Shown here one piece after another: positions 15,674 to 63,964 of a stretch of DNA of 64,000 nt. The first letter of the stretch is position 1; the number at the start of each line of letters is the position of its first letter. The stretch comes from Patescibacteria group bacterium (GTDB taxonomy: Bacteria > Patescibacteriota > Patescibacteriia > UBA9934). The notes under the pieces are model-generated. The model ran no database searches and was not told where the DNA came from. It worked only from the letters and a program-made list of their open reading frames with translations. The stretch lies in assembly GCA_018062825.1 (NCBI GenBank), contig JAGORL010000001.1:247074-311073 (forward strand), written 5' to 3'. The position numbers were made by a program, and so were the translations under genes.

Positions 15674-16006
15674 GTGAAGAAGTTCATCTCCGCCCTCGTC
15701 GCCCTCGCCCTGGTCGCGTCCGCCGCCGTCTTCTTCGTGAAGATGAACGAGGACAAGTCCGAGGACGCCGTCATCGTTGTGGCCGACTCGTTGTGCAACG
15801 ATGAAGACTGGCAGACGTGGGTTTATGCCAAGACCTTCGTCACTCCGGAGATCGCGCTGAGCGAGCGCGATGGACAGATCTACGCTCCAGCGATCGAGCT
15901 GATCGAGCTCGATGGCCAGGTCTACCAGATCAACGCCAGCGCCCAGGGGCCGTTTGTCTGTGGGAAGGTGGACGAGAATCTCGTCTGCCATGCGGTGGGC
16001 GAGTGA
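15674..16006 (+). CDS. small secreted protein (signal peptide MKKFISALVALALVASAAVFF), GC-rich islet
   Basis: GTG start with GGAGG 5 nt upstream. About 65% GC with strong GC3 bias, unlike the flanking sequence. Confidence 0.55.
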   Translation: MKKFISALVALALVASAAVFFVKMNEDKSEDAVIVVADSLCNDEDWQTWVYAKTFVTPEIALSERDGQIYAPAIELIELDGQVYQINASAQGPFVCGKVDENLVCHAVGE

Positions 16007-16099
16007 CTACGTGAGCGCTTCGTTTCGCCTTCGGGTGAGATGGAGCGCTCTTTTGCTTTTTAATATTCCCCTCGGCCTTAGTCAGGCCACGGGCGATGC

Positions 16100-16122
16100 C
16101 TACTTCCTACTCGCTACTCCCT
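16100..16122 (+). repeat. CT-rich motif copy 3 (CTACTTCCTACTC-gctact-CCCT)
   Basis: Ends about 18 nt upstream of the ligA ATG at 16141. Carries a 6-nt internal insertion relative to copies 1 and 2. Confidence 0.55.
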
Positions 16123-16140
16123 TTGCTACAATCGCCCCAT

Positions 16141-18189
16141 ATGACCCGCGCCGAGGCTAAGGAACGCATTGCGAAATTACGGGAGCTGATCGATCACTAT
16201 CGCTATCAATATCACGTCAACGATACGCTGGAGGTGTCAGATGACGTGAGTGATTCCCTTAAGCACGAGCTCTACACGCTCGAGCAGCAGTTTCCTGATC
16301 TCATTACCCCGGATTCGCCAACCCAGCGTGTTGGCGGTAAGCCGCTAGAGAAGTTTGCCAAAATCACCCACGAACGCCCCATGCTCTCCATGGAGGACGT
16401 TTTCAGTCCGGCGGAAATTGAGGCCTGGGAAACGCGCCTTCGTAAACTTAATGACGACCGTGCTCCGAAGTATTACGCCATGTACAAGATCGATGGCTTG
16501 GCGGTCTCGCTCGTGTACGTTGATGGCGTTTTGCAAAGCGCTGCTACCCGTGGCGACGGGCAAGTGGGGGAGGATGTCACCTTGAACGTCAAAACGATCG
16601 AATCGGTGCCGCTATCATTGCGTACACCATCCGCTGATGATTTGAAAAAGATCGCAGAGGACTTCGGCCTATCGCCAGAGGCGCTGAAGGCCGCCACTGA
16701 TCGTAAAGGACGCCTTGAGATTCGAGGCGAGGTCTATATGCCAAAGAAAGCCTTCACCAAGATGAATGCTGAGCGTCGAAAGCGCGGTGAAGAAGAGTTT
16801 GCTAATCCACGTAATGTTTCGGCCGGCAGTATTCGTCAGCTTGATCCAGCGATTGCCGCTAGCCGCCCACTCGCATTCTTTGGTTGGCGTTTAGAGTCTG
16901 ATCTTGACCAGAAAACGCAAACCGCCGGCACCCAAATCCTGAAAGCCTGGGGCTTTAAACTAAGCCCGGGTCAACACTGTTCATCGCTACAAGAAGTGCA
17001 AGAGTTTTTTGATGCCACCCAGAAAAAGCGCGACAAGTTAGATTTTTGGATTGATGGCATTGTGGTTCGCGTTGACGATAACCGAGCCTTTGAAGACTTT
17101 GGTGTTGTCGGAAAAACACCACGCGGCCTTGTTGCGTATAAGTTCCCACCAGAAGAGGTAACAACGCGTGTTGAATCGGTTGATTGGTTCGTTGGTCGTA
17201 CGGGTGCACTCACGCCGGTCGCAAACGTTACAGCGGTCTTCGTCGCTGGCACCACGGTCACGCACGCTACATTACACAACGCTGACGAGATCGAGCGCCT
17301 CGGGCTCAAGGTCGGCGATACAGTCGTGCTCACCAAAGCCGGCGACATCATTCCTAAGATCATGTCGGTCGTAACTAAATTGCGTACTGGCAAAGAACAA
17401 GCAATCGCGCTGCCGAAAGTTTGTCCGGTGTGTGGCTCCCCGGTTGAGCGCCGTGAAGGCGAGGTAGCGCTTGTGTGTACAAACCGCGATTGTTACGCCA
17501 AGGAACGCGAACGCGTGCTCTACGCTGCTCGCGCCTTTGCAATCGACGGCCTCGGCGACAAGATCGTAGAGAAATTGCTCGAATCAGGGCTTGTTAAGAC
17601 CGCCCCAGATATTTTTAGACTCACTAAAGATGATCTCCTCACCGTTGAAGGCTTTGCTGATCTTTCGGCCGCGAAGCTCGTTGAAGAGATTGCACGTCGT
17701 AAGGAGATCAACCTCGATGACTTCATTGTTGCGCTGGGAATTCGTCACGTGGGTGCGCAAACAGCCTTCACGCTCGCTTCAACATTTGGAACGATCGAAG
17801 CGCTTGCAGCGGCTTCACTCGAGGAGCTGCAAAATTCTCCAGACGTTGGCGCGGTTGTTGCGCAGTCGTTGCATGATTTCTTTACCAGTGAAAACGGCAA
17901 GAAGATGATTGTTGATTTTGGTGAAGTCGGGGTAGTGATTCGCAAGGCGCAGAAGGTGCAGCAAAAGCTCGCTGGCTCAACGTTTGTGATTACAGGAACG
18001 CTCGCGGCTATTGGTCGCGAAGACGCCAAAGAGAAGATTCGTTTGCTTGGTGGCAATGTATCGGATTCCGTAAGCAAGAAAACGTCGTACGTCGTTGTTG
18101 GTGAGGCACCAGGATCAAAAGCGCAAAAAGCCCAGGAGCTTGGTGTTCGTGTCTTGTCAGAGAGTGAATTTTTAAAGTTATTAGAATAG
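16141..18189 (+). CDS. ligA: NAD-dependent DNA ligase
   Basis: [11 protein letters not shown] adenylation motif, zinc-finger Cys cluster [10 protein letters not shown] and a C-terminal BRCT. The ORF-track N-terminal extension from 16096 is translation of the CT-rich leader. Confidence 0.95.
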
Positions 18190-18211
18190 CTGACCTTGAT
18201 CAAGAGTCTTC

Positions 18212-61988: not shown

Positions 61989-61993
61989 GTGGG

Positions 61994-62527
61994 CTAACCA
62001 GCATTTTCAGCGATTTCTTTGAGTGCAGCAAGACCGCGATCAAAATCTTTCTGAAGAGCCTTCTCCATGCTAAAAAGAACCGCAAAGATTTTCATGGTGA
62101 ACGGATTGGTGCCAGTCATAATCCAGGTAACGCGAGTGCCGCCTGCTTCCGGAGTGAATCTGAAAGTTGTTTGATTCATCGCTTCAAATGGTTTGATGAA
62201 CTGAAGATCGATCTTGATTTCATTTGGCGCATCACTCGAGGTGATCGTCATCTTTCCCTCGCCAACCTTACCGTTACCAGACCAGCTATAGGTTGCGCCA
62301 GTGCCGTGTGATGGCTCGCTATACTCTTTCTTCATGGAGTCATCCATCTTTTCCCAAGGAGACCAAGCTTTCCAAGCTTTGAAATCATTGATATGCGTAA
62401 AGATTCTTTCAGCAGACGCGTTTATGACGATCGATCGTTCATAACGAAAGTCATTTGGAAGCGTGGCGACATAGCCAAGAAAGACAATGCCGGCAAAGAG
62501 TAGTGCAATAAAGAGTGCGAGAAGCAT
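61994..62527 (-). CDS. membrane-anchored SRPBCC-family protein
   Basis: N-terminal TM segment (LLALFIALLFAGIVFLGYV) followed by an SRPBCC-like domain. Internal ATG chosen; ORF track extends to 62638. Confidence 0.5.
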   Translation of the reverse strand: MLLALFIALLFAGIVFLGYVATLPNDFRYERSIVINASAERIFTHINDFKAWKAWSPWEKMDDSMKKEYSEPSHGTGATYSWSGNGKVGEGKMTITSSDAPNEIKIDLQFIKPFEAMNQTTFRFTPEAGGTRVTWIMTGTNPFTMKIFAVLFSMEKALQKDFDRGLAALKEIAENAG

Positions 62528-62624
62528 AATGATGTAATTTAGAAGTACTGTGAAAAACAGTACATTGTTTAAGTAATTAATAAAAGCGAGGCATTCGCTT
62601 TTTGGAAAGTGTTGAAAATGAAAA

Positions 62625-62647
62625 CCCAGACGCGCCATGCGTCTGGG
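62625..62647 (-). terminator. terminator hairpin CCCAGACGC gccat GCGTCTGGG
   Basis: Downstream of the minus-strand RCC1-like gene; followed by a T-tract on the minus strand. Confidence 0.65.
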
Positions 62648-62767
62648 TGTGGCTAAAGTTCAAGCAGGATATTTGTCGTAATTTGTCCTGGAGAACTTTA
62701 GTAGCGCTAGTGAGGGCAGAGCGTATGTTGAATCGCTCGAATGACACTCACTATGTGAAGGGATGAA

Positions 62768-63964
62768 CTACCAGTACTGCGGGGTGCAGCTGGCGTAGCG
62801 CGCCGGCCACTGGCCGGCGTTCGAGCCGCCCCAGCAGATGGCCTCGCCGAACTCGTACGGGACGAGGCTACTCGAGCCGTCGACCGCGTCCTTGGGGTCG
62901 TCGATGACCCCGCACATCCTGCCGCCGCTGTCGGTCACCGAGACCTCGACCCGCGAGCGCCAGGTGACCGGACCGTTCGGGCCCTGCGGGATGTAGTACC
63001 GGTTGGCCGGCACGCCGTAGTCATCGAACATCACGGCGTGATGCACGCCGTCGGGGCTGGTGTTGTTGTCATCCGTCCAGAGGTAGACGGACCCGTCCGA
63101 GAGCATCGCGGCCCCAAACATGTGACCGATCTCGGTGGTCTCCCAGGAGATGATGTCGACGTCGCTCGGAATGCCGCGCTGCCCGGGGACGGGGCCGTTC
63201 GCGATGAACGAGCTGCACGCACTCGTTGTGACGCACCACATGTCGAGGGTGCCGTCGTCCTGCACCGCGCCGGCGATGTACCGCCCGACCTCCACCGCCG
63301 TATACGTGCCGGTGGAGGGCTTGTTGGCGTGGGTCGACAGGGCCGTATCGCCCCAGCAGCTCACGCCGCCGTTCGTGATCCCGACGGCGCACCCGACGTC
63401 ACGCCCCACACCGAGCTCGGTGAAGCCGGTCGTGGTGGGGAGCGCACTGCCGAACGCGCCGGCCGTGTTGCCCCAGATCCGCACCTGCCCGTTCTCGTCG
63501 AGGACGCCGAAACGTCCGGTCGAGCCCGAGGAGAGCGCGCTGTAGGGCTCGCCACCCGTCGGATGGGAGATGATCGTGCTGTAGCCGAAGCAGTTGAGAG
63601 CCCCGGAACCGGAGAGGATCGCGCAGCTCCACTCATAGTAGCCGCTCGACGCCCCCTCGCCGATCATGGGGTAGGCGAAGTTGCCGGCCGCGTACGGGGA
63701 GCCGACCGAGTAGGGCTCGGCCTGCCAGGTGCCGTTCGCGCTCGAGCTCCACGTGCCATCGTCGTTCAGCCACGAGACCGCCCCGTGACTCGAGGACGGG
63801 AAGATCTGCAGCGGGCAGACGTCCGGCAGATCCGGGATGCATTCCGGCTCGAGCTCCTCGACCGGCACGCAGCCGGCGTTGCACTCCTGCCCGCGCGCGT
63901 CGGTCGCGACGAGCGTCAGGCACAGGAGCATGGTGAAGGTGACAAGGTGCTTGTGATCGTGCAA
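62768..63964 (-). CDS. secreted RCC1-like repeat (beta-propeller) protein, strongly GC-rich
   Basis: TTG start with GAGGAA upstream and a signal peptide. Repeated G.V.CWG motifs (GQVRIWGNTAG, GGVSCWGDTA, GEAICWGGSNAG). About 68% GC. Confidence 0.55.
   Translation of the reverse strand: MHDHKHLVTFTMLLCLTLVATDARGQECNAGCVPVEELEPECIPDLPDVCPLQIFPSSSHGAVSWLNDDGTWSSSANGTWQAEPYSVGSPYAAGNFAYPMIGEGASSGYYEWSCAILSGSGALNCFGYSTIISHPTGGEPYSALSSGSTGRFGVLDENGQVRIWGNTAGAFGSALPTTTGFTELGVGRDVGCAVGITNGGVSCWGDTALSTHANKPSTGTYTAVEVGRYIAGAVQDDGTLDMWCVTTSACSSFIANGPVPGQRGIPSDVDIISWETTEIGHMFGAAMLSDGSVYLWTDDNNTSPDGVHHAVMFDDYGVPANRYYIPQGPNGPVTWRSRVEVSVTDSGGRMCGVIDDPKDAVDGSSSLVPYEFGEAICWGGSNAGQWPARYASCTPQYW

Follow-up and report, generated by a model that had tools for sequence, protein, structure and literature searches.

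GC-rich, Shine-Dalgarno-led gene islets in a mostly Shine-Dalgarno-free Patescibacteria chromosome

Patescibacteria, or the candidate phyla radiation (CPR), account for a large share of bacterial diversity; they live on other cells, an epibiotic habit being widely inferred for the group, and their genomes are tiny. A central question is by what route they acquire new surface and accessory functions. Episymbiotic Saccharibacteria have reportedly acquired host-related genes, such as an arginine deiminase system, and foreign genes in general are said to be covered by the amelioration framework of Lawrence and Ochman and by the codon-position regressions of Muto and Osawa. The gene finder GeneMarkS-2 is said to recognise bacterial genomes dominated by leaderless transcripts and to hold a separate class of atypical (foreign) genes. 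Integron and CALIN (clusters of attC sites lacking integron-integrases) cassettes are units of a single open reading frame (ORF), inserted serially and each ending in a hairpin. Horizontal gene transfer (HGT) and genomic islands are documented in Patescibacteria themselves, where they make up to 13% of genome length (PMC12455944); in that survey of aquifer metagenome-assembled genomes (MAGs), most of the inferred donors were other Patescibacteria and some were diverse other taxa (PMC12455944). Here we describe a 64-kb stretch of DNA (the window), part of a 406,338-bp contig of a Patescibacteria MAG (locus tags KBC55_01370 to KBC55_01640), in which seven small islets of GC-rich genes with Shine-Dalgarno (SD) sites lie in a backbone whose genes mostly lack such sites, and we lean towards reading these islets as repeated captures of ORF-sized cassettes.

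The comparison set consisted of the 10 genes of the seven islets and 58 backbone genes of the window, the overall GC content of which is 0.508. The GC content at third codon positions (GC3) of the islet genes ranged from 0.64 to 0.93, without overlap with that of the backbone genes (mean 0.488, standard deviation 0.038, maximum 0.569). Almost all of the GC excess of the islets resided at third positions: pooled islets exhibited GC1, GC2 and GC3 values of 0.60, 0.47 and 0.82, versus 0.59, 0.41 and 0.50 in the backbone, and their third positions consisted of C at 0.49 and G at 0.33. Whole-gene GC of the islets was 0.57–0.68, with islets 4–6 at 0.57–0.59.

Translation initiation separated the same two groups of genes. 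A GGAG/GAGG core located at positions -17 to -4 from the start codon was present in 9 of the 10 islet genes and in only 1 of the 58 backbone genes (Fisher p = 2e-9); in the tenth islet gene, encoding an AAA_33 protein, a GAGG lies too near the first ATG and is well spaced for the second. The full GGAGG was found in only 4 of the 10. The mean energy of the duplex with the anti-SD sequence at the best start was -8.9 kcal/mol for islet genes versus -3.8 kcal/mol for backbone genes (Mann-Whitney U test, p = 4e-6). The starts at 37712 and 57888, taken from the first-pass annotation of this DNA, and that at 23540, used here, are the SD-supported ones. The islets and the features around them are located as follows.

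15593..15621, plus strand: sigma-70-type promoter, TTGACA-17-TATTAT (11/12 matches in the promoter scan), upstream of islet 1.
15674..16006, plus strand: islet 1, KBC55_01370, a 110-aa secreted or lipoprotein-like protein; GC3 0.86; GGAGG 5 nt 5' of the GTG start.
16013..16050, plus strand: intrinsic terminator of islet 1 with a 17-bp stem; a TACAAT -10 box and, at 16138, the leaderless start of ligA lie downstream.
22538..23377, plus strand: islet 2a, pyrF, a type-2 orotidine-5'-phosphate decarboxylase (TIGR02127, 238 bits); GC3 0.83; GAGG 5' of the start.
23357..23419, plus strand: left copy of a 62-nt direct repeat, comprising the pyrF 3' end and the terminator hairpin 23388-23411.
23448..23476, plus strand: AT-rich extended -10 promoter of the membrane-gene cassette, TTGACA-17-TGnTAATAT.
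23540..24166, plus strand: islet 2b, KBC55_01410, a 208-aa multi-pass membrane protein; GC3 0.86-0.89; AAGGAGAGG upstream.
24175..24235, plus strand: right copy of the 62-nt direct repeat, comprising the duplicated pyrF 3' end and the terminator 24204-24227.
24295..24732, minus strand: islet 2c, KBC55_01415, a 145-aa hypothetical protein; GC3 0.78; GGAGG 5'; terminator 24279-24254.
24802..24876, plus strand: tRNA-Pro(GGG), adjoining islet 2.
28743..29330, minus strand: islet 3a, KBC55_01440, a 195-aa hypothetical protein; GC3 0.73; GGAGG 5'.
29501..30097, plus strand: islet 3b, an AAA_28 P-loop NTPase; GC3 0.74; GGGGGAG 5'.
34111..34198, plus strand: tRNA-Ser(GGA), adjoining islet 4; terminator-like hairpin 34205-34224.
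34294..34845, minus strand: islet 4, an AAA_33 P-loop kinase-like protein; GC3 0.64, the least extreme islet; GAGG directly 5' of a tandem ATG ATG.
37272..37712, minus strand: islet 5, KBC55_01495, a 146-aa membrane protein; GC3 0.73; AAGGAG 5' of the GTG at 37712.
57577..57888, minus strand: islet 6, KBC55_01600, a 103-aa hypothetical protein; GC3 0.75-0.77; GGAGG 5'; strong terminator 57568-57537.
62768..63964, minus strand: islet 7, first gene, a secreted RCC1-like beta-propeller; GC 0.68, GC3 0.93; GAGGA 5' of a TTG start, databases using an ATG 11 codons downstream; terminator 62648-62624.
Past the window end (contig L025, 746-1909): islet 7, second gene, KBC55_01640, a tandem paralogue of 387 aa; GC3 0.91.

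Terminator-like hairpins lie 3' of islets 1, 2 (three hairpins), 4, 6 and 7, and promoter-like sites were located by the promoter scan 5' of islet 1 and of the membrane gene. The seven segments had been singled out by the first-pass annotation, and they are indeed compositional outliers at the positions it gave; its descriptions of the backbone genes as mostly SD-less and of two islets as abutting tRNA-Pro and tRNA-Ser genes were likewise borne out. Other statements needed trimming. A GC content of about 60–68% is right in kind and slightly high for islets 4–6, a canonical GGAGG in front of every islet was overstated, and boundaries coinciding with terminators or promoters hold for the terminators listed here, the promoters being limited to islet 1 and the membrane gene. 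The last segment is GC-rich as described but does not end at its proposed border, since islet 7 continues past position 64000 with the second paralogue. The two tandem paralogues share 50% amino acid identity, and a pirin gene of backbone composition (0.49 GC) then resumes the backbone.

Backbone genes exhibited a different layout at their starts. A TANNNT box ending 4–12 nt 5' of the start codon was found in 17 of 32 operon-leading backbone genes and in no islet gene; since this is the arrangement of leaderless mRNAs, such transcripts are suggested for the backbone. TATAAT-like -10 boxes without SD sequences stand at backbone starts such as 11849, 13381, 16138 (ligA), 24906, 34961, 48478 and 52073, and the true ligA start is 16138 and not the longest-ORF start at 16096. 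Judged from the sequence, this pattern suggests that leaderless mRNAs dominate in this Patescibacterium. When 38 unrelated metagenome loci of at least 8 kb were run through the same pipeline as a negative control (loci from a metagenome scan anchored on the ABC transporter, mostly distant homologues at ~50% identity), five GC3 outliers were obtained, none of them with a strong SD. A codon-bias class of highly expressed genes was rejected as the source of the islets: the core genes rpoD, dnaG, typA and gatCA, together with the genes beside pilM that we read only provisionally as pilins, have GC3 values of 0.39–0.57, the ribosomal protein genes lying outside the window.

Every islet has backbone on both sides, with boundaries at gene ends, and several junctions recur outside this assembly. 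A Logan contig from run SRR11088486 (L001) carries islet 2 with both junctions, and another from a different run, SRR11088367 (L032), presents an MFS transporter gene, the 195-aa gene, the AAA_28 gene and an ABC transporter gene, thus both junctions of islet 3, parts of which are also covered by L033–L035. Contig L025 matches window positions 60434–64000 at 100% identity and extends past the window end through the tandem paralogue and the pirin gene, and the same arrangement of islet 7 is found at 99.9% identity in the NCBI metagenome assembly GCA_020047435.1. Furthermore, islet 2 genes occupy the same locus in another species from another sample (L024). Such independent recurrence excludes a chimeric origin of islets 2, 3 and 7; the islets are genuine and not an artefact.

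The congener contig L024 (12.3 kb, ~79% nucleotide identity to the window) reveals gain and loss of islet genes in a conserved setting; this comparison reached islets 1 and 2 only, and variable presence was observed in both. The gene order from pilM to pyrF is identical, and backbone proteins are 82–96% identical, except for a fast-evolving 234-aa gene at 64%. Synonymous divergence (NG86 dS) was 1.4–2.0 in 7 of 10 genes and ~0.63 in gatC and lgt, with the 234-aa gene saturated. Both pyrF and the 145-aa gene are present at the same places in L024 (75% and 62% amino acid identity, respectively), each with a GC3 of 0.75 and a GAGG-type site. Islet 1, by contrast, is missing from L024 and also from L002 and L003, the Patescibacteria MAGs that are the nearest species representatives in the genome collection (LigA identity 68% and 64%, gene order conserved; relatives in the LigA match list span GC contents of 0.36–0.62). 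At the islet 1 locus of L024 the gap between the upstream gene and ligA, which is leaderless there (TATAAT, with the ATG 9 nt on), is only 76 bp, whereas in the window a segment of ~508 bp (~15627-16134), containing the SD, ORF and terminator, stands between the orthologous promoter and ligA. The alignment with L024 thus identifies the promoter at 15593..15621 as the counterpart of the congener's ligA promoter, which now drives the islet 1 gene.

The membrane-gene cassette of islet 2b (~816 bp) is also missing from L024. It is bracketed by the 62-nt direct repeat, which consists of the last 18 nt of pyrF plus the terminator and whose copies are ~92% identical and 816 bp apart; this was the only long direct repeat found, and a repeat scan covering islets 1 and 3–6 revealed no flanking repeats there. 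The duplication suggests, on sequence grounds, a single-crossover or duplicative insertion. A dispersed REP-like (repetitive extragenic palindromic) element was considered for the repeated terminator hairpin and rejected, as the repeat search returned only two copies. The two recent gains, islet 1 and the membrane gene, exhibit GC3 values of 0.86–0.89, the highest of this comparison, and the two shared genes lower ones (0.78–0.83 in the window, 0.75 in L024).

The tRNA genes mark a further variable interval. In L003 (15877-16193), tRNA-Pro(GGG) and tRNA-Ser(GGA) are 154 bp apart, right after the DsbA gene, whereas in the window they are separated by 9.2 kb containing a Ca/Na antiporter, an MFS transporter, two ABC exporters, a HIT protein and islet 3, with islets also on both outer sides. 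The interval thus appears to mark a hotspot of insertion or rearrangement. A separate observation concerns the end of the congener contig, where the last 49 bases of L024 (11740-11788) are identical (100%) to window positions 24829-24877 in the tRNA-Pro region in inverted orientation, which may reflect either a local inversion or a contig-end artefact. Between two 97.5%-identical strains of a related Patescibacterium, a cassette of ~1 kb has been replaced (L027 16089-17092 versus L028 16087-17015), the L027 version holding a 267-aa gene with a GGAGG site; this difference appears to show cassette turnover at the strain level.

The same mosaic was present in other members of the clade. In the contigs carrying islet 7 homologues (L027, L029 and L031) and in L003, genes with GC3 values of 0.67–0.98 and GGAGG-type sites, mostly encoding small secreted or membrane proteins, are interspersed in a backbone with GC3 of 0.42–0.57. 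When L024, L027 and L029 were pooled, using the databases' own gene calls, 19 SD-led genes had a median GC3 of 0.75 (range 0.46–0.98) and 36 non-SD genes a median of 0.49 (p = 3e-7). As would be expected of an amelioration series, the SD-led genes of these relatives are spread over the whole range from 0.46 to 0.98. In the higher-GC relatives L011, L004 and L010, only 1 of 38 high-GC3 genes had an SD site. Text searches of the literature found no link of Patescibacteria with a coupling between SD and GC3.

The most extreme family is that of islet 7, for which a seven-bladed RCC1-like propeller with a signal peptide is predicted (pLDDT 81.5). The top folds retrieved for the model by Foldseek were UVR8 and BLIP-II (E ~1e-9). 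It shares the seven-bladed fold and the signal peptide, as predicted, with BLIP-II and secreted bacterial RCC1-like propellers, but its sequence identity to UVR8 and BLIP-II is only 12–19% and it possesses an additional Cys-rich N-terminal segment; a secreted binding scaffold is the most that the predicted structure justifies as a function. A word-indexed search found 11 relatives, and a profile search ~15 more full-length clusters, plus generic giant RCC1-repeat proteins. Three relatives with readable context are GC 0.64–0.70 islets between flanks of 0.39–0.50 GC on Patescibacteria-type contigs, and another cluster includes a protein of a further Patescibacteria MAG. The tandem paralogue KBC55_01640 belongs to another subfamily, with 56–57% identity to P0129 and P0130 versus 49% to the window copy. 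A neighbourhood with pirin and DUF1801 genes is loosely conserved near the family in several Patescibacteria.

One member of this family is compositionally native outside CPR. The homologue P0131 lies on a uniformly 0.69-GC long-read contig, L117, which encodes flagellar, PilZ, sigma-54-activator and Ser/Thr-kinase proteins, displays several SD-like sites and is, by gene content, non-Patescibacterial. P0131 (L117 9950-11100) contains at least 10 frameshifts and neighbouring gene calls are fragmentary too, so that indel errors of long reads are the likely cause, although P0131 may be a pseudogene. When stitched, it exhibits 52–59% identity to 9 of the 10 Patescibacterial members compared and 46% to P0124. 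The Patescibacterial members are 41–63% identical among themselves, with two pairs at 76% and 85%, and the L117 copy is thus as close to most of them as they are to one another, or closer.

For most of the other islet proteins that were looked up, relatives were few or absent. Apart from the congener copy, pyrF has relatives at ~60% identity, and the pyrF-pyrE pair of a Patescibacterium of 0.56 GC (L116) likewise carries a GGAGG site, with GC3 slightly elevated. For the AAA_28 protein, three relatives at 62–69% identity were found, the next being at most 40% identical; the sole organism name among the remoter ones is Gemmataceae (39% identity). The islet 1, membrane, 145-aa, 195-aa, AAA_33, islet 5 and islet 6 proteins fall into 90%-identity clusters of 1–3 sequences, nearly all from this genome. 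No homologue above 76% identity was found outside the species. Islet proteins contain less Lys than backbone proteins, their Arg/Lys ratio is higher, and their GARP and FYMINK values are intermediate.

The backbone itself encodes pilM-type pilus genes, a prepilin peptidase, ligA, gatCA, lgt, a DsbA-like protein, dnaG-rpoD, typA, ABC and MFS transporters, a photolyase and carotenoid-type enzymes. A phytoene/squalene-synthase-like gene, a CruF-like carotenoid hydratase (TIGR03460, 142 bits, slightly under the cut-off) and the photolyase are grouped in this CPR genome (36352-37218, 38302-39090 and 39017-40405), which hints at pigment synthesis and a light-exposed habitat, unusual for genomes so reduced. 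Additional backbone genes encode a SET-domain protein (55454-55894), a DUF3095 protein (52691-53881) and a treble-clef zinc-finger repeat protein (55912-56541) with an unusually high GC2 (0.61). Between the prepilin peptidase gene and ligA, a 216-aa and an 83-aa gene of backbone composition (14664-15558) are present in the congener L024 and not in L002 or L003; they form a lineage-specific insertion that is not GC-rich.

We favour, with modest confidence, the view that ORF-sized cassettes with SD leaders were captured repeatedly from sources that are GC-rich and use SD sites, at several times and from more than one kind of donor. The cassettes, usually one ORF with its own SD leader and terminator, would have been inserted at different times into a Patescibacteria chromosome whose genes are ~50% GC, mostly translated without SD and in many cases leaderless, bringing GC-rich codon usage and SD sites along from their sources. 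The GC3 range from 0.93 to 0.64 would then be a sign of differing ages and of incomplete amelioration. Judging from the window, insertion would have proceeded by simple recombination into intergenic expression sites and would not have been driven by an integrase, with three putative kinds of landing site: islet 1 lies downstream of a resident promoter and ahead of a leaderless gene start, the membrane cassette sits at a terminator where single-crossover or duplicative recombination would have left the 62-nt duplication, and islets surround the tRNA-Pro/tRNA-Ser hotspot. The highest GC3 values in the two recent gains, the GC-native homologue on L117 and the GC3 continuum of the SD-led genes count for import, and so may the raised Arg/Lys ratio of the islet proteins.

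These results bear unevenly on the origin proposed by the first-pass annotation. Its choice of repeated horizontal acquisition over chimerism agrees with the recurring junctions of islets 2, 3 and 7 and with the two islet units that have no counterpart in the congener; the direction of transfer, the multiplicity of donors and the amelioration behind the GC3 spread are what we infer from these patterns. Presence and absence among relatives, which it had singled out as informative, does differ between genes, islet 1 and the membrane cassette being missing from L024 and pyrF and the 145-aa gene shared. A single high-GC donor finds no support, since the sources look mixed and pyrF and the membrane protein are nearest to CPR proteins; a high-GC host as donor is unproven, and the 69%-GC contig L117 serves as a lead only. 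The annotation had also named same-lineage homologues of the same GC content as the finding that would speak against it. The closest relatives of islet 7 and of the AAA_28 gene, a handful of proteins, come close to that, being GC-rich in Patescibacteria as well wherever their context could be read, but the homologues there are islets too.

Several observations weigh against import. Domain scans of the islet genes and the scanned neighbours revealed no integrase, recombinase, transposase or phage genes. No high-identity donor for any islet was found among 5.8 billion proteins; all organism-named matches of pyrF are CPR (Parcubacteria, Kaiserbacteria, Uhrbacteria and Paceibacterota), and homologues of the membrane protein, sought among the loci already fetched, are compositionally native at 37–39% identity in L010 and L006, Patescibacteria of 0.53 and 0.61 GC. 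The loosely conserved pirin/DUF1801 neighbourhood hints at long residence of the islet 7 family. Moreover, non-coding DNA beside the islets and the spacer between the islet 7 tandem paralogues are both at 0.48 GC, the homologues in L027, L029 and L031 have flanks of 0.39–0.50 GC, and non-coding DNA of L117, at 0.64–0.74 GC, is unlike the islet flanks. Pooled islet GC1 is backbone-like (0.60), whereas ~0.69 would be expected at a GC3 of 0.82, and the promoter of the membrane cassette is AT-rich and native-looking. GC-richness thus stops at ORF borders, and GC-ending codons may therefore have been maintained in place. ORF-precise borders could be reconciled with import if only minimal SD-plus-ORF fragments behind a resident promoter survive in a deletion-prone small genome, as islet 1, behind its resident promoter, would illustrate.

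The two processes were compared at four-fold degenerate sites in conserved codons, where exchanges between G/C and A/T (S<->W), exchanges between C and G (C<->G) and GC content (GC4) were as follows.

Backbone, window versus L024: ~0.9 substitutions per site; S<->W 0.38; C<->G 0.06; GC4 0.48/0.46.
Islet 7, window versus L031: ~0.9 substitutions per site; S<->W 0.08; C<->G 0.34; GC4 0.94/0.95.
Islet 7 tandem paralogues: ~0.9 substitutions per site; S<->W 0.19; C<->G 0.28; GC4 0.95/0.84.

The divergence of islet 7 copies consists almost only of C<->G exchanges, so a strong GC regime appears to have prevailed while they diverged: either they were captured separately after diverging in high-GC genomes, or selection or biased conversion acted on them in place. 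The C<->G value of 0.34 versus 0.08 for S<->W is the pattern of evolution inside a high-GC genome and in that sense supports import. For the shared islet genes pyrF and the 145-aa gene, a general time-reversible (GTR) decay model fitted to backbone four-fold sites predicted a GC4 of 0.72 from a fully G/C ancestor, and 0.76 was observed (p = 0.17). C<->G exchanges were above and S<->W exchanges below the neutral expectation (pyrF pair: 0.14 and 0.29 observed, 0.09 and 0.40 predicted). Under this model, amelioration of the shared islet is possible only from an extreme starting GC.

Maintenance in place, in which leadered, SD-dependent accessory genes would be held at very high GC3 throughout this clade as part of a stable two-regime genome, is a serious contender but an unlikely one. 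Such maintenance would be brought about by selection on mRNA (for stability, for structure or against AT-rich signals) or, at loci prone to recombination, by GC-biased gene conversion. It would account for the ORF-precise GC boundaries with native-type promoters and terminators, for the backbone-like GC1, for the coupling of SD and GC3 across the clade and for closest relatives that mostly belong to the same lineage. The lack of decay in islet 7 also speaks for it, as copies ~0.9 substitutions per four-fold site apart still have GC4 of 0.94/0.95 (0.95/0.84 in the tandem paralogues), and so does the pyrF pair, with its excess of exchanges within S and its S<->W deficit relative to the neutral model. 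However, the SD-led genes form a GC3 continuum down to 0.46, unlike a maintained class; free C<->G exchange speaks against selection of particular optimal codons; the L117 homologue is GC-native and lies outside CPR; GC3 is highest in the recent gains; and neutral decay was not rejected for the shared islet. We also know of no mechanism that confines GC-biased gene conversion to ORFs. It is correspondingly doubtful that the GC-rich, SD-led accessory surface and kinase-like genes constitute a stable second class, so that coding and initiation would follow two regimes within one genome; in a related reading, host-mimicking genes would be retained in the host's dialect.

We also consider improbable, though by no means negligible, that the cassettes circulate within the clade, through DNA uptake and homologous or illegitimate recombination among Patescibacteria, so that the ORFs would come from higher-GC Patescibacteria and not from a foreign phylum or a host. 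The nearest relatives of pyrF being CPR proteins, with the L116 copy displaying GGAGG and slightly raised GC3, and the native membrane-protein homologues in Patescibacteria of 0.53–0.61 GC fit this origin, as does the 62-nt duplication, whose inclusion of the pyrF 3' end is what DNA arriving from a relative with this gene neighbourhood should produce. The strain-level swap between L027 and L028 and the span of GC contents among relatives (0.36–0.62) are consistent with it too, and most transfers detected in the published survey were from Patescibacteria to Patescibacteria (PMC12455944). Nevertheless, L011, L004 and L010 use SD in 1 of 38 high-GC3 genes, which leaves the SD signal of the islets unexplained, and their GC3 of 0.65–0.77 is below that of the extreme islets (0.86–0.96); moreover, the gene content of L117 is not that of a Patescibacterium.

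Remnants of prophages, integrative elements or defence islands targeting tRNA genes are very improbable. Two islets do adjoin tRNA genes, the tRNA pair is split by 9.2 kb relative to L003 and direct repeats flank one cassette, but five of the seven islets are not beside a tRNA and no integrase, recombinase or phage structural genes were found. PHROGs returned only a weak polynucleotide-kinase match, to the AAA_33 protein, and PADLOC no matches; IMG/VR viral contigs contained no relatives of the three islet proteins tried, and a plasmid tblastn search with the AAA_33 protein yielded a single weak cyanobacterial match. A classical tRNA-associated integrative island was likewise rejected, in view of the lack of an integrase in the scanned genes and of a tRNA-derived direct repeat at islets 2 and 4. 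Finally, although a sharp GC contrast is a classic warning sign in a metagenome-assembled genome, a chimera of assembly or binning, with high-GC reads of another organism spliced into a Patescibacteria contig, has a practically negligible probability, given junctions reproduced with a different assembler and in other runs or assemblies, orthologous islet genes at the same locus in a different species and sample, and the same mosaic in L003, L027, L029 and L031.

The locus thus offers a view, at single-gene resolution, of how Patescibacteria gain and lose accessory genes, and of where such genes land: one cassette has hijacked the promoter of the leaderless ligA, and another sits at a terminator between duplicated sequences. 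Accessory genes can be recognised across the clade by a simple signature, in that they combine an SD leader with high GC3 where the backbone is SD-less. If the donors were hosts, the hosts of uncultured CPR could be identified from genome sequences by way of such islets; if the GC-rich state were maintained in place, one small genome would, unusually, run two systems of codon usage and initiation.

Compared with the systems described so far, the islets combine familiar and unfamiliar traits. GeneMarkS-2, with its reported atypical class, is a model for gene finding and not a description of this clade. Integron cassettes share with the islets the single-ORF unit with a hairpin, and one islet cassette is bounded by a repeated hairpin-containing sequence, but the window encodes no integron integrase, the islets have plain T-tract terminators and own promoters, and they are dispersed, not arrayed; an integron cassette array was rejected on these grounds, the T-tract terminator being repeated only twice. 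In terms of the amelioration framework, as it is usually reported, the islets resemble foreign genes in their atypical GC3, in a GC3 range readable as ages and in their presence and absence among relatives, whereas classical foreign genes are said to be usually AT-rich with donor-like GC1 and GC2, and the islets have recipient-like GC1 (0.60 versus 0.69 expected) and recipient-like flanks. As reported for Saccharibacteria, an epibiotic CPR lineage would here be gaining accessory functions by HGT in its niche; the islets, however, encode mostly small secreted or membrane proteins and P-loop NTPases and not a metabolic pathway, and no high-identity donor was found. The islands of the aquifer survey belong to the same phylum and likewise consist of foreign DNA that stands out by composition and makes up several percent of a reduced genome (PMC12455944), but they are multi-gene islands, whereas here single ORFs of 0.3–1.2 kb, all GC-rich and all SD-led, lie in an SD-less backbone. 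HGT into Patescibacteria is therefore already known (PMC12455944); what is new is that the units are single ORFs, that the islets are GC-rich without exception, that GC-richness goes together with SD leaders across the clade while the backbone is leaderless, and that the most extreme family shows no decay.

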